Below, piece after piece: positions 14,865-64,000 of a stretch of DNA of 64,000 nucleotides. Position numbers and translations under genes: made by a program. The notes beneath the pieces are model-generated. The model was not told where the DNA came from and did no database searches. It worked only from the letters and a program-made list of their open reading frames with translations. The stretch is taken from positions 130,788-194,787 of the IMG/VR virus record IMGVR_UViG_3300050343_000285; one strand, 5' to 3'. Source of the DNA: a virus. Numbering within the stretch: position 1 is the first letter of the stretch; each line of letters starts with the position of its first letter.

Positions 14865-16369
14865 TTTTTTGTTTTTGAAAAAAATATACAGTATCTATGG
14901 AATCTACTAGAGTAAAACCATAGCTTTTAATCTTATTGATACACTTTTCTTTAAATTTTTTATCTTTCATTAAAAACTGATGTATTTCTATAAGTATCTT
15001 GTTACAATTTTGTATCACATGAGCGTTTTCCTCTAAAAAAATTAACTCACCACCTTCACAATCTATATTCATGCAGTTAATATTTTCTATATTTTTTTAT
15101 ACTACTTAATTTAATACATTCTAAATTATAATCTCTTCTGGTTTTTGCGAAATTTCTACCATTATCAACTCGATCAGCTGACCCAGCAACTATCAAATTA
15201 TAAGTCTGAAAATTAACTATATCTAATGTTTGCGAAATATAACCAAATACCAAGTCTACATTTTTTATATTGTTCTCTTGCATTGTCTTCTGTAATGACT
15301 CTTTGAGTTCTGGATTGGCTTCCACAGATATGACATGCTTACATTTTCTTGATAATCTTAGAGTAGTAATACCTAAACATGATCCAATCTCTAAAACATT
15401 ATCCTTTTTATTTAAATATTTATTAATTAAACATAATTCTGTTTTTTCATATATTTTATTACGAAATCTTTGCATTAGTTCTGGTATGCAATATCTCTTT
15501 GGTATAAATATTTTATTATTTAGATAATTCACGGATTGTATATCTTTTTGTTTTCTTAAACTTTCTCTTTTGATTTTTTCCCCATCTAGTAAAATCCTCG
15601 AAGCTGCTGGCTGGCTCATACTAGATTCAACATCTCTAATACCTTTTACTAATTTAAATAATCCAGCAGGCTCAAGACTCGATAAATGGTCACTACCCCA
15701 CATATTATGATTAAGAGTAATGTGCCTTTCGACCCATTCAGCACCTAGAGCCACTGAAGCAAAAGTAGATACTAAGCCATACTCATGACCACTATAGCCT
15801 ATCTGTCTTGTAGGCCATCTTTTTTTCAGCCATTTGATATAGTTAAGATTAATTTCATTTACTGGACAAGGATACGTGCTATTTGTATGCATAACAACAT
15901 CAGCATCGCACGAGTATATACAGTCTTCTATTTCTTTTTCTGTACTCATACCAGTAGATATTATTAAAGTATTAAACTTTTTTTTAGAATGAACACAAAG
16001 ATCCCTATCTGTAATAACAGCAGAAGGTATTTTTGCAATATTTACATATTTGCTCATTAAATCTGCACTAGGAATATCCCAAACACTAGCAAACATTTTA
16101 ATATTTTGGCTTTTAGCATAGTCTATCAATTCAACAATTTGCTCTTCATTAAATTCAATTTTTTCTTTATACTCAAGATATGTCATATCCCCCCAAGGTG
16201 TTGATCGCATCTTGGTCTTTTGGTCTTCTGGAACACAAATGCTTGGCGTTCTTTTTTGAATTTTTACATAATCACAGCCAGAAGCACTAGATATATTAAT
16301 GAGTTTTTTACAGGTGTCGATAGAGCCATTGTGGTTGATCCCTATTTCCGCTATAATCTTGGTTTTCAA
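14845..16369 (-). CDS. neuB: N-acetylneuraminate/nonulosonate synthase fused to FkbM methyltransferase (one homopolymer frameshift near 15095)
   Basis: IAEIGINHNG, KIQKR, HTNSTYP, GYSGHE, ERHIT; in-frame VLEIGSCLG, VEANP; continues as MNIDCEGGE after removing one A. Confidence 0.85.
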
Positions 16370-35537: not shown

Positions 35538-35570
35538 GGATGATCCTTAAATGTTAGATTGATTAATAAG

Positions 35571-35643
35571 TAGGGCAGGCGGGAGTCGAACCCGCACTGT
35601 ATGGATTTTAAGTCCATTGTCTCTGCCTTTGGACTACTACCCC
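35571..35643 (-). tRNA. tRNA-Leu(TAA), short variable arm, CCA not encoded
   Basis: 73 nt cloverleaf: GGGGTAG/CTGCCCT acceptor, ATGGA-CTTAAAA-TCCAT anticodon arm, GCGGG-TTCGACT-CCCGC T arm, discriminator A. Confidence 0.95.
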
Positions 35644-47630: not shown

Positions 47631-47633
47631 AAG

Positions 47634-47973
47634 TGGAGGCGAGGGGAGTCGAACCCCTGTCCAGTATAAATTCCACATAAACTTCTACATCGTTAGTCTG
47701 TTGTTATTAATACTACAGACAAAACTGTTTGTCTTTCCAACGTCAAAGTGATTACACTTATCTTTATATTTAATTCAGGTATACATTCCCTATCCGATTA
47801 TCGGAGTCAGCATAATTGGGTAAAAAGGTTTATGCAACCCCTCTCACCTAAGCGGCGAGTGCTAATACAGAAGTATCGGCAACTAAAATGTGATCTATTT
47901 TTAAACTGGCCTTTAGATCAACCAGTCGATGCGATCTATATTTCTATTTACCTGTCGAAACCAGTACGCCCCC
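47634..47973 (-). ncRNA. ssrA: tmRNA (340 nt), tag (A)ADTSVLALAA*
   Basis: 5' GGGGGCG-TACTGGTTTCGACAGG; 3' GGGGTTCGACTCCCCT-CGCCTCC-A; G3:U70 alanine determinant; TAGTT-GCC resume context; tag codons 47880-47848. Confidence 0.95.
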
Positions 47974-49694: not shown

Positions 49695-49841
49695 TTATTT
49701 AGAGGCTAATAGATATAAGCCTATATTAGAAAATGAATAACCTAAGTAAGCAATAGACATGCCAATATTCCCTTTATATAATTGATCGCAACTAACATAC
49801 AGATAAATTAATCCGGTTAGTGCTATTAACCATCCACTCAT
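49695..49841 (-). CDS. small two-TM membrane protein typical of aquatic phages
   Basis: Hand translation MSGWLIALTGLIYLYVSCDQLYKGNIGMSIAYLGYSFSNIGLYLLASK*. Confidence 0.7.
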   Translation of the reverse strand: MSGWLIALTGLIYLYVSCDQLYKGNIGMSIAYLGYSFSNIGLYLLASK

Positions 49842-50752
49842 ACATATACACCTTTACAATATTGTGAGATTGCTTTATCTTTCATTTTTAATTCCATGTC
49901 TAGGTCAAAATCCAATCCGTAAGTGTTAAAGATTTTGTAAGCATAATCTCCATGTTTTCTAGGATTAGGATGGTCTGGTATATTTTCGCTATAGTGAAAT
50001 AACGGCCTATACTCACCCCATGTTAAATAACATTGTTCTAATGCTTCTTGTTCTGACCAACCATCTGGATGACACGCATGATGTAAATAATCAAATGTGA
50101 TAGGTATGTTAGTTTTTGTATAAAAATCTTTTATAAGTTGTTTTACAGACCAGCAATTAAGTTTATCGTCATTTTCGATAACCAGACGATTACGACAATT
50201 ATCGTCAAGTCTGTTATAATTTTGAATAAATCTTTCCACCACTTCATCGTTACTTCCTTGTCGATTATTTATGTGTAAATTCATTGGCGAATTATAATCG
50301 GCAGGGCATCCTATTCTGTCAAGAAAACTACTGTAAAAATTTAATTCTTTAATAGTTCTATTCACAGCATCAGTATTAAGAGAGGCTAATACATTAAACT
50401 CACTAGGATGACAACTGATGCGCACATTAGTTTGTTGAATTGTATATGCTATTTTATCAAACGCATTGTCTATTTTTTCATAATCAGGTAATTCATACCA
50501 ATCAATATTAGCCGCTGTATATGTCATTAAAGGAAAAAGATCGCTACTAATGCGATAACACATATTATTATCGGCACAATGCTGTATTGTAGCATCGGTG
50601 ACTAACATATTATTGAGAATACGCTTACTTAATATAGATAATGCCTCACTACGATCTAGTTGACTAAATCGTTTATAAGTCATAGTTTGAAATCTGAGAG
50701 GATTTTCAAGTTCTTGCAAATCTATAGATATACAACATAAGCCAAAGCGCAT
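49838..50752 (-). CDS. uvsE: UV DNA damage repair endonuclease
   Basis: GLCCI, YRISSDLFP, RISCHP, LHIN, IENDD, FDYLHH, PLFHYSE. Confidence 0.93.
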   Translation of the reverse strand: MRFGLCCISIDLQELENPLRFQTMTYKRFSQLDRSEALSILSKRILNNMLVTDATIQHCADNNMCYRISSDLFPLMTYTAANIDWYELPDYEKIDNAFDKIAYTIQQTNVRISCHPSEFNVLASLNTDAVNRTIKELNFYSSFLDRIGCPADYNSPMNLHINNRQGSNDEVVERFIQNYNRLDDNCRNRLVIENDDKLNCWSVKQLIKDFYTKTNIPITFDYLHHACHPDGWSEQEALEQCYLTWGEYRPLFHYSENIPDHPNPRKHGDYAYKIFNTYGLDFDLDMELKMKDKAISQYCKGVYV

Positions 50753-51322: not shown

Positions 51323-52011
51323 ATTAAGTCCTTTTTCGTATAGTATCCTACACATCTACCCATTTCGTATTGACCGAATGCTTTAAAATGATCTAATAAT
51401 AGTTGTCTTTGATCTGAATGAAAAACTTTTAAAAGGTCTGCGTTTAACTGATGATATAAATTATGATCAAATTTATTTATATCTAACAACCATTTTAATT
51501 TTTCTTTACTTATGTCCCTAAGATATTGTTTATATAGTTCATCCTTGTAAATAATAGGTTTATGGAAATTGTTTTTTTTGAAGATTTTTTCTGGTTTTAC
51601 AGGATCGTCGTAATTTGTGTAGTTTATATCAAATATTTGTGCATTTTGTAAATTAACTATTGAATGTAGTATATCTAAATAATTACTATGTTGTTCACTA
51701 TTAAATTGAAATGTACCAGATTGATTATCTAAGTAAGTAATCATACCATCACCATCTATAGATAAAGACCCAGCACCAATTACTGAATCCATAATATCTT
51801 TACTAATATGTTGATGTTGCAATCCTATTTTAATTTTTTTATTATCTAAAAGTATAAAATCATACTTTTTATAATAGCAATAAGCATTATAGAAAAAAAT
51901 TCTTCTATCTATAATGTTAAAATCAAATGTATTAACATTAAATCTTTTATCGCCGGGAATAATTTTTCTTTGTATTCTTTTCTTATATTCTTCTATTTTT
52001 GGTCTATCCAT
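51319..52011 (-). CDS. hypothetical two-domain protein
   Basis: H...VIGAG...LDNQSG segment plus a C-terminal FD..Y...DL...HF..FG..E.GR repeat. Confidence 0.6.
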   Translation of the reverse strand: MDRPKIEEYKKRIQRKIIPGDKRFNVNTFDFNIIDRRIFFYNAYCYYKKYDFILLDNKKIKIGLQHQHISKDIMDSVIGAGSLSIDGDGMITYLDNQSGTFQFNSEQHSNYLDILHSIVNLQNAQIFDINYTNYDDPVKPEKIFKKNNFHKPIIYKDELYKQYLRDISKEKLKWLLDINKFDHNLYHQLNADLLKVFHSDQRQLLLDHFKAFGQYEMGRCVGYYTKKDLI

Positions 52012-52643
52012 GATAATGCTTCAGAGATAATAGGAAATTCTTGACAGAATATTTTTTTACACTCCAAGGCGATATCCATGTGTTCTTTTTGTGTTCCATT
52101 TTTTTCTCTTAGTTCTATATAATGAATCCAATTACGAATACTACCACTCATATATAATCTTGTAGGAGTTGCTAAAGGAAGTATAAATCTAGCACACTCT
52201 TTAGCAATACCGTCTTTAATCATATCATCATATAGACCCTTTGCTTTAGCAAAATGCTCTCTTATTTGTCTATTCCACTTAAATATTATATCTTGATCTA
52301 AATCATCAATACTATTTTGTCTATTTTTATTATCCTGACTTCTTAAATTAAATACAGGAATCTCATCTGCAAGATGTGTAGTATCAGCATATCTTTGGCT
52401 AAATTCCTGAAAGGTAAAACTTCTATGTCTTAATATTTGTGCTGCAATACCCCTGTTTGTATTAATTTCAAGAGTCATAAAAGCCATTTCAAATATAGAC
52501 CAATGCTTATGCTTAATGCAATAATTAAGTAATCCAGATATATTATTACTATCTTGATTGTTTGGGTTAGACACTCTAGCACAATATGCTATATTTTTTT
52601 CTGCATCTGGAGTTACACTAATTAATTTAATCGTCTGAGTCAT
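51993..52643 (-). CDS. thyX: flavin-dependent thymidylate synthase
   Basis: HWSIFE, QILRHRSFTFQEFSQRY, ARFILP, RNWIHY..LR...TQKEH. Confidence 0.97.
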   Translation of the reverse strand: MTQTIKLISVTPDAEKNIAYCARVSNPNNQDSNNISGLLNYCIKHKHWSIFEMAFMTLEINTNRGIAAQILRHRSFTFQEFSQRYADTTHLADEIPVFNLRSQDNKNRQNSIDDLDQDIIFKWNRQIREHFAKAKGLYDDMIKDGIAKECARFILPLATPTRLYMSGSIRNWIHYIELREKNGTQKEHMDIALECKKIFCQEFPIISEALSWIDQK

Positions 52644-53405: not shown

Positions 53406-53669
53406 TCACCAAGATGATCTTTCATAATCTATTTCTTTCTGTATTTGTTCTTGAGCATATCTTTTTTGATGTTCTACATGCTTATTGTCTGTGATATCAT
53501 TGTATATATTCATAGCGATTTTGCTCAAACTATTAGTAGTTCCGTTTCTTTCAGGGTCTTCTAATAACTTCCACTGATAGTTATAAGGATTATTTTCATC
53601 TCCAGATTTCTCTCTGTCAACTTTATATCCCTTATCCTTAGCCCATCGTTTTATATTAGTCCAATTCAT
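53406..53669 (-). CDS. hypothetical protein
   Basis: 87 aa ORF in operon. Confidence 0.7.
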   Translation of the reverse strand: MNWTNIKRWAKDKGYKVDREKSGDENNPYNYQWKLLEDPERNGTTNSLSKIAMNIYNDITDNKHVEHQKRYAQEQIQKEIDYERSSW

Positions 53670-54271
53670 TTTTTATCCTCAAAGTTATATTTAAATACAT
53701 TAATATCTTTTTTCCAATATTTTGACACCATATCTTTACTTTCTGAATTGTAGTATAAAGAATAGTGCTTTCTTTCCATGCTATTTATACGCAATAATGG
53801 AGTAACAGGCATACCAGAAGTTTTACATATATAACTCCAATCATAACTAACATTTTCCAACCTTCCTATAAATGTAAGAACAATGTCTTGCGTATCATTC
53901 ATGCAAGCACTCCATTGAGGTTTAATATGAGCCTCTAATTGTGTCTGATCTAAGTCTATAACAGTTTTAATAAACTGATTAAATGTCATATCAGGATTAA
54001 AAATTTTACCATATTTTTTAAAGCATTTATCAACTCCTGTGTCTGGATTAATTATGTTTGGCGATAAAATTTTGTTTGTGTAAATAGAAACCATTCTTTC
54101 CCAAGGATTTTTAACAAACGTAAAAGAAAAATAGTTTTTATATTCGTCAAACTTACTGAAAGGCACAGCCAGTTTGTCAATTTTTTGAGTCTCAAAATAT
54201 TTTTTAATACTAGAAGAAGCACATTTTGCAATATCCGAATAAATAAGTTTATACTTCTCGTACACAATCAT
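53666..54271 (-). CDS. sulfotransferase family 2 protein
   Basis: IAKCASSS, KNPWERMVS, HIKPQ, GRLEN. Confidence 0.85.
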   Translation of the reverse strand: MIVYEKYKLIYSDIAKCASSSIKKYFETQKIDKLAVPFSKFDEYKNYFSFTFVKNPWERMVSIYTNKILSPNIINPDTGVDKCFKKYGKIFNPDMTFNQFIKTVIDLDQTQLEAHIKPQWSACMNDTQDIVLTFIGRLENVSYDWSYICKTSGMPVTPLLRINSMERKHYSLYYNSESKDMVSKYWKKDINVFKYNFEDKK

Positions 54272-57394: not shown

Positions 57395-58012
57395 TTATAA
57401 ATATATTTGTAACATATTATAATTTATTGGATCAAAATCAGGAAATAATAATTCATTTTTATTATAAGAAGAATCTTTTTTTAAATTATTAATAACATTT
57501 TGTATATTACTGTATTTAATGTTTCGAGTATTTAATACTATCGAAGGAATATCTTTATCAACTTTTAAAAATTTTAATGTTGTTTTTTGCCAAACAGGAT
57601 TGTCTATATTACAGACCAATAGTTGAGATGATTTATCTTGAAAAAAATCTAATACGCTGTGATGATGGTATCTTCTTTTATTAATCCATGATAAAGCCAA
57701 TTTTTCGCTCGCTGGGTATGCCCAATTTATTTTCTCCCTTCTTCTATGCGCCATAGCAAGTCCATGTTTAAATCTTGAGGAAATCCAATCTTGCAAAGGT
57801 CTTGTATTTAATAAAAATAAAGCATCTGGATAATGATTATAATATTCTTTAAATTTATCAACATGATTACCATCGTTAAAGGCATCAAATTTTTTAGCAA
57901 GGTATAAAGGAGATTTTGTACTATGTGCAGAATTAATACCACATACTTTTAATAAATTATGAGTACTCATTGTAGCAGTTTTATTCAAACTCAGATTAAA
58001 TATTTTATTCAT
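57395..58012 (-). CDS. sulfotransferase-like P-loop protein
   Basis: SLNKTATMS, LNTRPLQDWISSR. Confidence 0.7.
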   Translation of the reverse strand: MNKIFNLSLNKTATMSTHNLLKVCGINSAHSTKSPLYLAKKFDAFNDGNHVDKFKEYYNHYPDALFLLNTRPLQDWISSRFKHGLAMAHRRREKINWAYPASEKLALSWINKRRYHHHSVLDFFQDKSSQLLVCNIDNPVWQKTTLKFLKVDKDIPSIVLNTRNIKYSNIQNVINNLKKDSSYNKNELLFPDFDPINYNMLQIYL

Positions 58013-59346: not shown

Positions 59347-59375
59347 AATATAGCATACGGAATATTGTTTGTCAA
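59347..59375 (-). promoter_or_regulatory. sigma70-type promoter
   Basis: TTGACA-aacaatattccgtatgc(17)-TATATT with TG extension. Confidence 0.7.
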
Positions 59376-59716
59376 TACCTTGAGTATCTTTTGCAACAAT
59401 ACCACATACCATATTTGCTTTGACAATATCCCACATCAACAACATGCATACCACTATTACTATAACAACAATTATTATATGCTTCATTCTGAGTCCAACC
59501 ACTACCACAACCTTCATAAGTATTATTATGTCCACCAAAATGAGACACACAATTTCTTGATGCCATTGTATTCGCCACCCCTTGTGCAGAGGTATTGTCT
59601 ACTGGCGTAGAATATGTATACTTATAAGTTGTATTAGTTTTCTTTTTACTTCTTCTAGCCTCACAAACATTAGGTAGCAATGTGATAGCAATTAATATTA
59701 ATAATATCTTCTTCAT
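59372..59716 (-). CDS. secreted Cys-rich protein, degenerate CAP-like
   Basis: Signal MKKILLILIA...; SAQGVA..MA....HFGG...YEGCG...NCCY...VGY. Confidence 0.6.
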   Translation of the reverse strand: MKKILLILIAITLLPNVCEARRSKKKTNTTYKYTYSTPVDNTSAQGVANTMASRNCVSHFGGHNNTYEGCGSGWTQNEAYNNCCYSNSGMHVVDVGYCQSKYGMWYCCKRYSRY

Positions 59717-59740
59717 TAATTTCCTCCTTGAAAAATAAAA

Positions 59741-59770
59741 TGGGGGATTGATATTATCTCGCACCCCTTA
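59741..59770. repeat. intergenic GC-stem element, copy 2
   Basis: tgggggattga-tattatctc-gcacccctta. Confidence 0.75.
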
Positions 59771-59773
59771 AAA

Positions 59774-60085
59774 TTACTTACAGTTGCAAGTATTACCGTT
59801 ACAAATTGTTCTACTAAAAGTCCTTGATCTTAGGACATTATCACAACCGTCTGTCACAGTCCAGTTTCTTGAGTATGTACTGCCTGTTTTATTGGAAGTA
59901 CATTCTGTAGAACGAGTAAAATATCTCCTGCCAAACAAGCCTCTACGGACTCTACAATCGCAACTACTACAAGAATCACAATCACTAGAGACAACTACTG
60001 ATTTAGTTTCTGGTACTGTTGGTGATTCACCAGCAAAAGCAGTAAAGGCAAACGCCGATAAAATTAGAGCAACAAAAATTTTCAT
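59774..60085 (-). CDS. small secreted Cys/Arg-rich protein
   Basis: Signal MKIFVALILSAFAFTAFA; CDSCSSCDC; RRGLFGRR; AGGAGG Shine-Dalgarno. Confidence 0.75.
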   Translation of the reverse strand: MKIFVALILSAFAFTAFAGESPTVPETKSVVVSSDCDSCSSCDCRVRRGLFGRRYFTRSTECTSNKTGSTYSRNWTVTDGCDNVLRSRTFSRTICNGNTCNCK

Positions 60086-60235
60086 ATTTCCTCCTGAAAT
60101 AATTAACAAAAAAACAATGGCATCATAAACAATTTACGATTAAAACCATTACAATTTATTTCTATTTAAATATAGAACTACTCCTATCATTACAGTAATA
60201 AGAATAAAAGTTATCCATTTATATAAAACTATCAC

Positions 60236-60818
60236 CTAATCCAATCTCCCACTCATCTCTGTCCATATCATAAGGTCTGCCTGAGCCAGTGTCAAGCCGG
60301 GATAATGTGTCTCCATCAAATATTTGCATAACCCTGCATACTTAGCATATTTTTCTGGAGTCTGTGGAGTATTCTTGGGAGCATCTTTTATATCACACTT
60401 TACTCTCATCCAGTTTAGAATATGAGTATCTAATACAATCTCATCGCAAAATTCTCTAGTATGCAACAAAAAGAATCGTGCAGTTTTTGGCCCAACACCG
60501 TGAATGTCCATAAGGTCATTTCTGGTGCAAGTTCTTAGGTCTAATCTAGCAGAGAAGAATAATGCTTTGCGTATCCTATCGTACTGACCTGTCTTATGTG
60601 CAGTTTAAATAATTATGTAGTTCTGTTAATTTAAGACTACGAATAAATTCAAAGGGAGTCTTGTCTCCTCTATTCTTTAATAACTTTGTCACTAACCTAG
60701 CGGTGGTATCACTATTCTTTCCTGCAACAAGAATACAGAATATCCAAAATGATTCCAGTTCTACATCTGTACGATTATAATTAGTAATATCTTTAGGGTC
60801 AATCAAAGTTTCCATCAT
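60236..60818 (-). CDS. HhH-GPD DNA glycosylase (OGG/N-glycosylase-lyase-like), frameshifted
   Basis: FCILVAGK, TGQYDRI, HGVGPKTARFFL, VLDTHIL. Confidence 0.75.
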
Positions 60819-60883
60819 TAAAATCCGTTAGCCAAAGTAGTAGGTAGACCAAAATGAACAACAATAAGGTAGTTACGTTATCC

Positions 60884-60911
60884 ATTATACTACCTTATCG
60901 TCTATAGTCAA
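60884..60911 (-). promoter_or_regulatory. sigma70-type early promoter
   Basis: TTGACT-atagacgataaggtag(16)-TATAAT. Confidence 0.7.
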
Positions 60912-60926
60912 GAGAAAACTTTAGAA

Positions 60927-61365
60927 TTATTTGCTACTTCGAGGATGTCCTTTTGGTAACAAATCATTATCCTGCTTATAGCCAGAATTTGATGGTCTAC
61001 CAGTTCTAAGTAGTGTAAGAAAAGCATTAACTCTTGCCATAGCCCAACCATCTCTACTCATTTTAGGAGCATGAGAGGTCGAATAAGCACCAGCACCTCT
61101 TCTGTATACTGCTTTTAACATGCGCAGTGTAGCCTTACTTCCTTTACCCCTTTTTTATTATGTTCACTAACTTTATTTTTTAATTTCTCAATAGTTTTTG
61201 CACTAAAAGTAATCTTACCTTTATCATCTTTAGCACTATCAGGTTTATTTTTTTTACTACCTTTTTTCTGATCTTTTTTAGGTGCAGGAGTTCTACGAGG
61301 GTCACTTTCTTGCCTGGTTTATCTGCTATTGCTTTTAATGCTTCTAAATATTTGTTAGTTCTCAT
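60927..61365 (-). CDS. basic hypothetical protein of aquatic phages (frameshifted)
   Basis: Lys-rich N-terminus then VYRRGAGAYSTSH...WAMARVNAFL...DNDLLPKGHP. Confidence 0.6.
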
Positions 61366-61402
61366 ATGAAAGTTCCTTGTATTTAATAACCTTAATTAAG
61401 TA

Positions 61403-61413
61403 ATTTATACACC
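61403..61413 (-). promoter_or_regulatory. GTGTATWAT motif
   Basis: GGTGTATAAAT overlapping the rebuilt ferredoxin stop codon. Confidence 0.45.
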
Positions 61414-61792
61414 TTTTTTCCCACCTTTTAACTCCGCTATATTTTGTGCAATATCTACTAATCTATCCCAATTTTCTTCAATATATTCTTTTGGCCCACC
61501 CATATCAGCCTGTGCCTACTGCTATCTCTTCCGTTGGAACCATCTCAATAGCATCCCAAGGACAAACCTTAACATCATATAATTTCCCTTTATTACCGGG
61601 AACATGAATACATTGCTCACAACCTATACAAGTAGATAGATCAATCTCACACCATTGAGTTACTCCCTTTTTTATCTGGAATATACAATCAACAGGACAT
61701 ACTTCCAAACAAGCCTCACATCCAGTACAATTATCTGCCTGAATGATTGCTAATTCTTTAGGAATCTTTTTTCTTGGTTTTTTCTTTGCCAT
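61405..61792 (-). CDS. 2[4Fe-4S] ferredoxin with insertion and C-terminal extension (frameshift near 61510)
   Basis: CTGCEACLEVCP and CIGCEQC-(insert)-CPWDAI; extension DMGGPKEYIEENWDRLVDIAQ... in the shifted frame. Confidence 0.88.
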
Positions 61793-63088
61793 TATGCTAT
61801 AATCTCGTGTTGAATATTTCCAAATACATCAGTCAATCTAAAATCTCTACCACTATATCTATATGTTAATTTACTATGATCAATACCCATTAGATGTAAT
61901 ATAGTAGCATGTAAATCGTGCATGTCCATTGAGTCTACTGCTTTATGTCCAAAGTCATCAGTAGAACCATATCTCATACCACCTTTAATACCACCTCCTG
62001 CCATCCACATAGAGAATCCACCATTATTATGATCTCTACCTGTTGCTCCTTCTTTTATGCCGGGAGTTCTACCAAACTCACTTCCAAATAATATAATTGT
62101 ATCTTCAAATAATCCAGAGTCTTTTAAATCTTGTATCAAAGCAGCGATAGGTTTATCAATAGCAGTTGTATTCTTTCTTTAAATTATCATTAATATTCTG
62201 GTGCATATCCCAACCACCATGACCAATCTCTACAAACCTAACTCCTGCCTCACTAAATTTCTTAGCTAATAAACATTGTTTACCAAACTTAGCAGTAGCT
62301 TTATCATTGATACCATACTTCTGTAAGGTTTCTTGTGATTCTTTTGATATGTCAACAGTATTAGGAACACTTGTCTGCATCCTAAAAGCTAACTCATAAC
62401 TCTCAATCAATCCTTCTAGTCTACTATTTTCCGCACCATCTTTCAGGTGCATCTGATTAAAGTCTCTTAATAAATCTAAGTCTTTTCGTTGTCTATCTTT
62501 AGTTGTAGATGTATTTACAAGATTAGGTATAGCACTTTTACTACCAGCATTAATAGCAGTACCTTGATATACTGCCGGTAAGAATGAACTGCCATACATA
62601 TCTGGCCCAATATTAGCATCTATAGTTATAAATCCCGGCAACTCTTTATTCTCTGTGCCTAATCCATACAATAACCAACTACCCATACTAGGTCTACTGA
62701 ATTGAAAATTACCAGTATGTAATAAACTTCTGGCTTGATTATGATTACCTGTTTTACTTTTCATACCATTAAGCAAACATAAATCATCTGCATGTTTACG
62801 CAAGTGTGGGAAGTTTTCACTAATTTCTATACCACTATCTCCTGCTGGAGTTAAAGGTACTCCCGGTTTCATAATCTTTCTACCTTTACTTACAGGATCA
62901 TCTATACCTGCTTTTTCTACCATTAAAGGTTTATGATCAAAAGTATCTGTATGAGTCATACCACCATTCATATACATGAATATAACTCTCTTATTACTTT
63001 TCATAGCCTCTTCTGCCATCAATCCTTTTAATGCTAACATACCGAAACCAAAACTACTAGCTTGTAATAAACTTCTTCTATTTAACAT
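61792..63088 (-). CDS. DUF1501 protein with Tat-like signal (frameshift near 62170)
   Basis: [100 protein letters not shown]. Confidence 0.95.
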
Positions 63089-64000
63089 TACGAAATTCTC
63101 CTGTGCAGATTATGATTTGAATAAGTTTGGCAAGATCACTGTCTTGTTTAATAAACTCTATAGATTTTTTATTCTCTTGTTCTGTAGGTGGACGACCTAA
63201 AAACTTTAGAAATATTTTATTTATGTTGTTGCGATATAATATATTGGGCATAGTTTTACCCATCTTTTTATTATGTTCAAGTAATACTTTTGCTTCTTCT
63301 TGTGCTAATGCTATGATCTTAGGATTGTTCATAAGGAATAATGCTTGAGTAGATACTGTCGTAACACTTCTCTCAGCATTAAGTAAACTATTATCTGGTC
63401 TATCAAATATGTCCAGTACCTCAATCTTATTATCTCTTAATGATGGAATATAAATTGATCTTGCTCTTGTCTCACCAATATACTTTCTTAATTCTTTGCT
63501 AGAATTTTTTATACCTGTTTGAAAATCACTTATGTTTTTATGCGACTCGTCTAGTTTGCCTGATACAAATAATAATGAATCTCTAATTTGTTCAGCCTCT
63601 AATCTTTTCTCATTCATTCTCCAGAAATAAATATTGTCAGGATCAATCTCATAATTATGTTTATCAAACTTACTACTACGCTTATAAGCATTACTCATAA
63701 CAATAGTTTTAATAAGTCTTTTATTTGATAGTCTACCTGTAATAAACTTAGTAGATAAATAGTTCATCAGTTTAAGATTAGTAGGTTCTCCACCAAGTAT
63801 ACCAAAATTATCAAAACTGTCCAGTATACCCTTACCAAACAAATGCATCCATACTCTATTTACATGAACTCTGTAAGTTAGTGGATTAGTTTTATGTGTT
63901 ATCCATTCTGCAAACTCATATCGTCCACTGGTATTATCAAAATTAAGATTAGGTCTATCACTAAATATCTCTGGTAATCTTCTTGGTACTTCATCGCCCA
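63078..64000 (-). CDS. DUF1553 (PSD1) domain protein, C-terminal part (runs off window end)
   Basis: SGR..FAEWI....NPLT.RV.VNRVW.HLFG.GI...DNFG..G..P, RLEAEQIRDSLL.VSG.L, RSIY, FD.PD, R..TTV.TQALFLMN. Confidence 0.95.
   Translation of the reverse strand, partial: GDEVPRRLPEIFSDRPNLNFDNTSGRYEFAEWITHKTNPLTYRVHVNRVWMHLFGKGILDSFDNFGILGGEPTNLKLMNYLSTKFITGRLSNKRLIKTIVMSNAYKRSSKFDKHNYEIDPDNIYFWRMNEKRLEAEQIRDSLLFVSGKLDESHKNISDFQTGIKNSSKELRKYIGETRARSIYIPSLRDNKIEVLDIFDRPDNSLLNAERSVTTVSTQALFLMNNPKIIALAQEEAKVLLEHNKKMGKTMPNILYRNNINKIFLKFLGRPPTEQENKKSIEFIKQDSDLAKLIQIIICTGEFRNVK

Follow-up and report, generated by a model that had tools for sequence, protein, structure and literature searches.

A phage-borne member of the functionally orphan PSCyt/PSD1–DUF1501 gene module in large uncultured aquatic phages

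Genes for PSCyt1/PSCyt2/PSD1 proteins and for DUF1501 proteins have been described as a 'conserved genetic module' of Planctomycetes, Verrucomicrobia and Lentisphaerae (Kamneva et al., 2012; PMC3542564), with the domains known from Rhodopirellula baltica, and He et al. (2017; PMC5615132) later drew attention to the cellular module. A comparable arrangement, in which DUF1501 is paired with DUF1800, occurs in Proteobacteria beside bacterial chitin synthase genes (PMC5122149). None of these three papers assigns a function to the module. The present analysis concerns a stretch of 64,000 nucleotides (the window) that forms the final 64 kb, positions 130,788 to 194,787, of the IMG/VR virus record IMGVR_UViG_3300050343_000285 (194,787 bp, given as 'linear' and rated 100% complete by CheckV). 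Its last few kilobases contain the 3' part of a PSCyt1-PSCyt2(DUF1549)-PSD1(DUF1553) gene, referred to below as the partner gene, followed on the same strand by a DUF1501 gene and a ferredoxin gene (Table 1). The locus is a phage-borne member of the known, functionally orphan module.

An initial annotation, made from the sequence without database searches, had read this region as an operon of DUF1553, Tat-signal (twin-arginine translocation) DUF1501 and 2[4Fe-4S] ferredoxin genes with overlapping ends. Pfam searches bear out all three assignments (E-values of 3e-72 for PSD1/DUF1553, 1e-77 and 6.5e-44 for two pieces of DUF1501, and ~1e-10 for the ferredoxin). The PSD1/DUF1553 match over 63078–63998(-) covers profile positions 2–243 of 244. 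An intact DUF1501 protein from a relative spans profile positions 2–389 at 1.4e-133, and the window copy amounts to a full-length PF07394 protein if one frameshift is read through. The overlaps are also as described: the start of DUF1501 overlaps the stop of the partner gene by 11 nt (63078–63088), and the ATG of the ferredoxin overlaps the TAA of DUF1501 (TAATG at 61792).

The contig end removes about 480 codons from the 5' part of the partner gene, comprising the signal peptide, both CxxCH motifs and DUF1549. The initial annotation had suggested that this 5' end be obtained by extension; its content is visible in relatives, in which the upstream gene encodes 772–792 residues (786–792 in those that are 87–93% identical over the shared part) with matches to PSCyt1 (2e-13), PSCyt2/DUF1549 (4e-80) and PSD1/DUF1553 (5e-71), and DUF1549 was found nowhere in the 194,787-bp record itself. 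The partner proteins of the relatives begin with a cleavable-looking signal peptide of the Sec type (MRFSCIIFILLTGSVFAQ). Their CxxCH motifs (C37-x2-C40-H41 and C332-x2-C335-H336), which lie outside the part of the gene present in the window, are invariant among 32 phage and cellular sequences. Among 18 relatives, 16 have the partner and DUF1501 genes in this order, on the same strand and directly adjacent, an arrangement shared by 51 of the 80 cellular loci; in two relatives, L005 (9375–9995) and L017 (locus labels of this analysis), a Sulfotransfer_2 gene (1.7e-21) lies between the two.

A scan of IMG/VR with the DUF1501 piece as the query gave 17 contigs at 79–99% identity, and the full pair is carried by at least 17 related contigs. 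A protein search extended this to more than 110 clusters at 77–99% identity, on contigs of up to 205 kb, followed by a group at 60–64% identity, two looked-up members of which are freshwater phage contigs (19 kb and 217–234 kb). On the long freshwater contigs, genes for rIIB and DNA ligase are present, as is the Ogg-HhH (helix-hairpin-helix) neighbour seen in the window, and in all 15 IMG/VR contigs recovered through this Ogg-HhH marker a DUF1501 gene lies just upstream, two of these genes being of another paralogue type. In long contigs the module lies deep inside the sequence, at 47–68 kb of a 117-kb contig and at 42–63 kb of a 166-kb contig, and is flanked by phage genes on either side. Apart from some rearrangement, the opening ~6 kb of the present record correspond by homology to the sequence that lies upstream of the module in relatives L006 and L009; this indicates a permuted genome whose assembly broke inside the partner gene, with at least ~1.4 kb of the 5' part missing. 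The nucleotide identity to the closest relatives is 93–95% in the module and 78–88% in the flanks.

These data bear on a caveat of the initial annotation, namely that this end of the record might be a chimeric join to cellular (planctomycete) DNA. Such a join would be in keeping with the position of the module at the very end of the record, where its first gene is cut. However, the composition of the module equals that of the phage, the closest cellular homologues are only 47–57% identical and have GC contents of 49–70%, and viral contigs of 117–166 kb contain this module internally, between matching flanks. Together with the synteny between the start of the record and the upstream flank of the relatives, this embedding rules out a chimeric end, to which a negligible probability is assigned.

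The nearest cellular homologues of the DUF1501 protein among 185,579 species genomes are from metagenome-assembled genomes of Planctomycetota and Verrucomicrobiota and show 47–55% identity by tblastn and 50–57% in the alignment; the partner is 36–41% identical to its cellular orthologues. The GC content of the phage DUF1501 gene is 34% (22% at third codon positions), compared with 49–70% (median 59%) for the cellular genes. In a maximum-likelihood tree of 109 sequences, which is rooted on a distant phage paralogue, includes long branches and samples the best 80 pattern-matched cellular loci, the 80 cellular sequences form one clade that contains no phage sequence (100 in the Shimodaira–Hasegawa-like approximate likelihood-ratio test), and the marine phage sequences form another (also 100). 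A tree that joins the marine and freshwater phage sequences was not rejected and scored better (approximately unbiased test, p-AU 0.68). The ratio of nonsynonymous to synonymous substitution rates (dN/dS), a check that the initial annotation had proposed, indicates strong purifying selection (0.02–0.14), with pairwise values of 0.02–0.12 for DUF1501 and 0.06–0.12 (median 0.085) for the partner.

The pair lies within phage genomes, has long been present in them and is strongly selected. Judged by composition and substitution pattern, the phage copies are fully adapted to the AT-rich genome, long resident and under strong purifying selection, in agreement with the long residence and selection in the phage that the initial annotation had deduced from codon usage. 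The simplest reading would be one old capture from a lineage of the Planctomycetes–Verrucomicrobia–Chlamydiae (PVC) type, followed by vertical descent in phages.

The freshwater phages possess two DUF1501 genes, one of which is paired with PSCyt/PSD1 while the second is a paralogue with 27–30% identity. This second lineage (L023:4490-7625, L024, L025, L021:8031-11152 and L123/L124; 27–32% identical to the first) is paired with a conserved 626-residue membrane protein that has an N-terminal hydrophobic segment and a DxSxS motif resembling that of the metal-ion-dependent adhesion site of von Willebrand factor A domains, and that has no match in Pfam or NCBIfam. Either gene order is found for the second pair, which shows 48% identity between two distant phages. 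The 626-residue protein was considered as a relative of PSCyt/PSD1, but the two families show no detectable relation (hhalign probability 0.1%).

In comparison with the module of Kamneva et al. (2012), the phage locus has the same two-gene order and strand, a three-domain partner with a cytochrome c motif and a twin-arginine DUF1501 protein. It differs in being phage-encoded, in forming a phage-only lineage outside the sampled cellular clade with AT-ameliorated composition, and in being minimal, without the carbohydrate-binding module, Big_2 and WD40 additions of the cellular versions and with a variable downstream slot that holds a ferredoxin, a thioredoxin, a 2-oxoglutarate (2OG) oxygenase or nothing. 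The DUF1800–DUF1501 pairs likewise combine a Tat-signal DUF1501 protein with a large helical partner in one operon, but the partner there is DUF1800, which lacks haem motifs, rather than PSCyt/PSD1.

Marine cyanophages carry pstS and phoA as auxiliary genes for nutrient acquisition. The present pair is similar to these in consisting of host-derived genes for periplasmic functions that are selected in marine phages; unlike them, it is absent from deposited phage genomes, since no blastn or tblastn match to the module and no PSCyt/DUF1501 gene was found in 50,697 GenBank phage records. Full-text literature searches likewise returned nothing on a phage-borne PSCyt/DUF1553–DUF1501 pair, so the impression of the initial annotation that this viral module had no prior description holds for the literature and records searched. 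DUF1501 is mentioned in a paper on a Pseudomonas phage (PMC5418858), but there it concerns a weak CDD match of a 61-residue protein, which has no bearing on the present module.

The AlphaFold model of the 431-residue DUF1501 protein (mean predicted local distance difference test score, pLDDT, 83.8) has the core α/β fold of the alkaline phosphatase superfamily over residues ~30–431. In VIA-align comparisons the model matches about 50 members of this superfamily with Z-scores of 15–20, the highest being those of ENPP6 (20.2), ENPP7 (20.0) and the nucleotide pyrophosphatase/phosphodiesterase (NPP) from Xanthomonas (Xac; 19.9), followed by PafA (18.3) and many sulfatases (18.2 or lower). Foldseek places S1 sulfatases and LtaS at the top of its list (probability 1.0, template-modelling score ~0.4). 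The model therefore shares its core fold with NPP/ENPP enzymes, PafA and S1 sulfatases, and the helix–strand segment that precedes the metal motif is also alignable by sequence, the segment from Asp311 corresponding to TIVIFTSDHG of sulfatases and NPPs, with 12–18% identity to the superfamily. It differs from these enzymes in having SEFG in place of SDHG, in lacking a C/S-x-P-x-R motif, in an extra invariant GRDHN motif and in its obligate partner with haem motifs.

Residues that are invariant among 39 phage and cellular DUF1501 sequences include the twin arginines (Arg5 among them), which are followed by a hydrophobic stretch, the export signal being recognized from this motif. The GSEFGRTP and GRDHN motifs are invariant as well, as are the polar residues His116, Ser134, Asp294, His296, Glu337, Arg340, Asp352, His353 and Asp391, and this set of polar residues suggests a remodelled metal site. 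Bimetal phosphoesterases of the NPP/PafA type have seven metal ligands and a Thr or Ser nucleophile; a weak profile alignment (E-value 0.0026, probability 11%) places the DUF1501 segment WDMH, containing Asp294 and His296, over the HLDY metal motif of NPPs and Glu337 over the aspartate of SDHG. The C/S-x-P-x-R formylglycine motif is absent from the 431-residue protein, which by this sequence criterion would not be a formylglycine sulfatase. Separately, Phosphodiest-family (Pfam) proteins of PVC bacteria (L149–L153) were observed to have SEYG in place of SDHG, the same Asp-to-Glu change as in SEFG, while a paralogue (L154) keeps TDHG.

For the partner, the model of the N-terminal domain (residues 20–114) adopts a cytochrome c fold, with the dihaem cytochrome FoxE as a match at a Z-score of 9.2. 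The helical PSCyt2 and PSD1 domains gave no convincing structural match (Z-scores of 6.6 or lower), although these domains were modelled together and the result does not prove a new fold. A sequence search of the PDB with the partner gave matches at chance level only, and a Pfam scan of the partner proteins of the relatives detected no glycan-binding domain.

The copy in the window departs from its relatives by several insertions. At 62177 the window reads TTTAAAGAAAG, compared with TTTAAA-AAAG in the alignments with L005, L006, L008, L009 and L011, and the extra base shifts the frame of DUF1501. DUF1501 is thus frameshifted at 62177, and the ferredoxin at 61516, which the initial annotation did not mention; by placing the end of the operon at 61405 it had silently read past the ferredoxin break. 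The next two genes, a DUF5824-like and an Ogg-HhH gene that are single open reading frames (ORFs) in relatives, are also split. All other DUF1501 copies are intact, with 429–434 residues. In comparisons of the window copy with its relatives, dN/dS is 0.03–0.14 for the PSD1 part, 0.03–0.15 for the first piece of DUF1501 and 0.04–0.10 for the second, with no relaxation of selection past the break. The two single-nucleotide insertions at 62177 and 61516 are likely to be sequence errors rather than real inactivation, because four unrelated adjacent genes are broken near the contig end, more than 110 metagenome clusters are intact and dN/dS is unchanged after the break. With respect to the real pseudogenising indels against which the initial annotation had cautioned, single-base insertions are seen, but they are not accompanied by relaxed selection, and errors are the likelier cause. 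For this record, apparent gene breaks should not be taken as biology without the reads.

A programmed −1 frameshift was considered at the same position. The relatives have a potential slippery heptamer in the zero frame, A_AAA_AAG (L006:10900-10915; also L005, L009 and L011), at the site of the window insertion (~62170–62180), and slippage there would give the same 310-residue product ending in EYNCY. The residues concerned are not conserved in freshwater homologues, so the heptamer is probably a coincidence, and this candidate was rejected.

Taken together, the locus is probably an auxiliary gene pair that is conserved in a clade of large, uncultured tailed phages from aquatic habitats and that represents a phage lineage of the PSCyt1/PSCyt2/PSD1 plus DUF1501 module, with a putative role in ester hydrolysis, an independent ferredoxin and insertions that are probably errors. 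During infection, both proteins would be exported to the host periplasm, the partner by the Sec route, with haem supplied by the maturation system of the host, and DUF1501 by the Tat route, already folded and loaded with metal. PhoX and PhoD are exported by Tat, as is predicted for DUF1501. In the periplasm the pair would act as a joint metal-dependent hydrolase of phospho- or sulfo-esters with a haem-bearing binding or redox subunit, and would process periplasmic or imported organic esters to the benefit of the phage; the ferredoxin would act independently in the cytoplasm. This general mechanism of Sec and Tat export and of a periplasmic metal-dependent ester hydrolase with a haem subunit is put forward tentatively and is judged somewhat less probable than its negation. 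No choice is made here between a phosphoester and a sulfoester or glycan substrate, the NPPs scoring slightly above the sulfatases in comparisons with the model. A still more specific proposal, that the pair constitutes a new class of auxiliary function in phages, an exported periplasmic haem-partnered ester hydrolase that scavenges phosphorus or sulfur or processes glycans and that marks the clade as viruses of Planctomycetota/Verrucomicrobiota-type hosts, is doubtful.

Several observations speak against this interpretation of the pair. DUF1501 has SEFG where sulfatases and NPPs have the canonical metal motif SDHG, with Asp replaced by Glu and His by Phe; the active site thus appears remodelled, which makes hydrolase chemistry uncertain. 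The papers on the two families (PMC3542564; PMC5615132; PMC5122149) demonstrate neither a substrate or activity nor haem attachment or export for any of their members. With regard to the state of this copy, ThyX at 52001–52631 aligns to its relatives without gaps, so that indels are unevenly spread along the record, and the module could be truly inactivated in this phage genome and on its way to being lost, the frameshifts in DUF1501 and the ferredoxin then being real. Two frameshifts lie within 700 nt and the two following genes are broken as well, which is compatible with such a loss, as is the nature of the insertion at 62177, a G within a run of A rather than a plain change in homopolymer length. 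However, the dN/dS values of the window copy, the part after the break included, match those of intact copies, and single-base insertions in four adjacent unrelated genes at a contig end resemble low-coverage assembly error. True inactivation is accordingly given a minor share of the probability, and it concerns this single copy only, since for the family a pseudogene state or relaxed selection is ruled out by the low dN/dS. The initial annotation had suggested that the module may remodel the envelope or periplasm of the infected cell. An alternative function for an exported pair would be remodelling of the envelope or of glycans, in which the pair edits sugars that bear sulfate or phosphate groups, on the host surface or on the glycoconjugates of the phage itself (for example in superinfection exclusion, release or a sulfation programme of the phage), rather than scavenging nutrients. 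Sulfotransferase genes lie near the module in the window (Table 1), within the pair in L005 and L017 and, as Sulfotransfer_4, near the pair in the freshwater locus L023; PSCyt genes of Verrucomicrobia often adjoin sulfatase genes (PMC5615132); and the DUF1501 fold is as near to sulfatases as to PafA. This alternative is nevertheless rather unlikely, given the lack of a formylglycine motif in DUF1501 and of a detected glycan-binding domain in the phage partner, the restriction of the sulfotransferase insert to two of the 18 relatives, and the cytoplasmic action of sulfotransferases on 3'-phosphoadenosine 5'-phosphosulfate, the pair being predicted to be exported.

The remaining alternative is a three-part redox chain in which electrons flow from the ferredoxin to the haem protein and DUF1501, the ferredoxin perhaps being co-exported as a passenger of Tat-borne DUF1501. 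The ferredoxin has a canonical first cluster motif, CxxCxxCxxxCP (CTGCEACLEVCP), and a second motif, CIGCEQC-x17-CP, in which 17 residues precede the last cysteine; the insertion that the initial annotation had reported in the second cluster loop corresponds to this long insert between the third and fourth cysteines. No specific NCBIfam family reaches its cut-off for this protein. A redox chain would be consistent with the TAATG coupling of DUF1501 to the ferredoxin, with the presence of the ferredoxin after DUF1501 in 12 of 18 marine relatives (80–100% conserved there), with the Tat export that is typical of cofactor-bearing redox enzymes and with the thioredoxin that occupies the same slot in freshwater phages. 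Start–stop overlaps are, however, frequent across the whole window, so that this coupling is weak evidence for a functional operon. The ferredoxin has no signal peptide and is absent from six of the 18 marine relatives (L009, L011, L012, L014, L015 and L020), in one of which (L012) a 2OG-Fe(II) oxygenase occupies its slot, and from the freshwater relatives, in which this place is taken by a membrane-anchored thioredoxin, by PspC, by trypsin or by other genes. In all 80 cellular loci no ferredoxin homologue or CxxCxxCxxxCP ORF was found within 6 kb. Conversely, ten of 23 phage loci with this ferredoxin family have no DUF1501 or PSCyt gene within 3 kb, and one of these records (224 kb, rated 100% complete) has no DUF1501 gene anywhere. 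A redox chain is therefore improbable. Because the ferredoxin is missing from relatives and cellular loci and present in phages without DUF1501, it constitutes a phage gene of its own, located in the variable slot that follows DUF1501, and its inclusion in the module by the initial annotation is not sustained. The freshwater thioredoxin (L026:5364-5807 and L023:13359-13799) has an N-terminal membrane anchor and a WCGFC or WCPYC motif and is encoded immediately downstream or in the vicinity of DUF1501, where genes for PspC, a trypsin-like protease and an M28 peptidase are also found; it could be a periplasmic thiol reductase that serves the CxxCH protein, for example in apocytochrome reduction.

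The phage identity of the record rests on the IMG/VR and CheckV classification, on weak terminase and HNH matches, on ThyX, UvdE, tRNA and transfer-messenger RNA (tmRNA) genes and on rIIB in a freshwater relative. The GC content is 32–34% overall and 25–36% along the window, the last 4 kb included, and the minus strand holds nearly all window ORFs of at least 120 residues. Among ten large proteins from record positions 16000–56000, the presumed structural region, PHROGs named two, a weak large terminase (phrog_2, 2.7e-7) and an HNH endonuclease, and the Pfam Gp23 and T4 portal families were not found in the 194,787-bp record; the virion genes thus appear very divergent from those of described phages. 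When the tmRNA was compared by BLAST with 301 genomes of Verrucomicrobiota and 301 of Planctomycetota, the only phyla included, most matches fell on its 3' ~30 nt and a few extended over 55–70 nt at 72–84% identity; 85 Verrucomicrobiota and 42 Planctomycetota genomes gave matches, a difference that does not point to a host. A promoter and terminator scan of 60000–64000 gave counts equal to the shuffled expectation, and operon boundaries are not drawable from it. Downstream of the module, 59372–59764(-) and 59774–60109(-) encode small cysteine-rich proteins (CDSCSSCDC and CCYSNSG) with signal-peptide-like N-termini, the first of which had no match in a Pfam scan.

Table 1. Coordinates of the module and of other features of the window
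Feature	Position	Strand	Remarks
PSCyt1-PSCyt2(DUF1549)-PSD1(DUF1553) gene, 3' part	63078..64000	-	306 codons + stop; cut by contig end
DUF1501, first piece	62156..63088	-	310 codons, twin-arginine signal; Pfam 1.1e-77, profile positions 2-266; ends at TGA created by frameshift
DUF1501, second piece	61792..62178 (listed ORF 61792-62139)	-	Pfam 6.5e-44, profile positions 278-390; GSEFGRTP and GRDHN
Window-specific 1-nt insertion in DUF1501	62177		C on + strand, G on coding strand; run in relatives AAAAAAG; shifts frame
2[4Fe-4S] ferredoxin, first 95 codons	61505..61792	-	Pfam Fer4_21, Fer4 and Fer4_7 above cut-offs, ~1e-10
Window-specific 1-nt insertion in ferredoxin	61516		Ferredoxin ends at 95 aa, compared with 126 aa in relatives
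Ferredoxin, displaced 3' end	61405..61515	-	36 codons + stop, helical C-terminal extension; AQADMGGP...LKGGKKGV as in C-terminus of relatives
DUF5824-like gene	60927-61365	-	~150-205 aa in relatives; split by window-specific insertions at ~61149-61150 and ~61304-61309
Ogg-HhH/HhH glycosylase-like gene	60236-60818	-	~193 aa in relatives; split by window-specific insertion at ~60602-60606
Sulfotransferase gene	57395-58012	-	Sulfotransfer_4, 1e-7
Sulfotransferase gene	53666-54271	-	Sulfotransfer_2, 2e-20
ThyX thymidylate synthase	51993-52643	-	1e-46; few kb from module
UvdE UV-damage endonuclease	49838-50752	-	3e-38; few kb from module
tmRNA	47633-47973	-	Tag peptide ADTSVLALAA
tRNA-Leu(TAA)	35570-35643	-	

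Genomes of Planctomycetes and Verrucomicrobia each contain tens of copies of the PSCyt/DUF1549/DUF1553 plus DUF1501 pair, to which no function has been assigned since 2004–2012. The occurrence of a long-selected version in small AT-rich phage genomes implies that the two proteins form a self-sufficient unit that pays off within one infection cycle. Since the phage pair is free of carbohydrate-binding and other additions and exists in marine and freshwater variants, it offers a compact pair for expression and assay. It adds a predicted exported haem-protein/hydrolase pair to the auxiliary genes of phages and may hint at the hosts of an abundant uncultured clade of 150–230 kb aquatic phages. If the pair does represent a new auxiliary class, its minimal two-gene phage version would be the simplest handle on a gene family that ranks among the largest orphan families of PVC bacteria.

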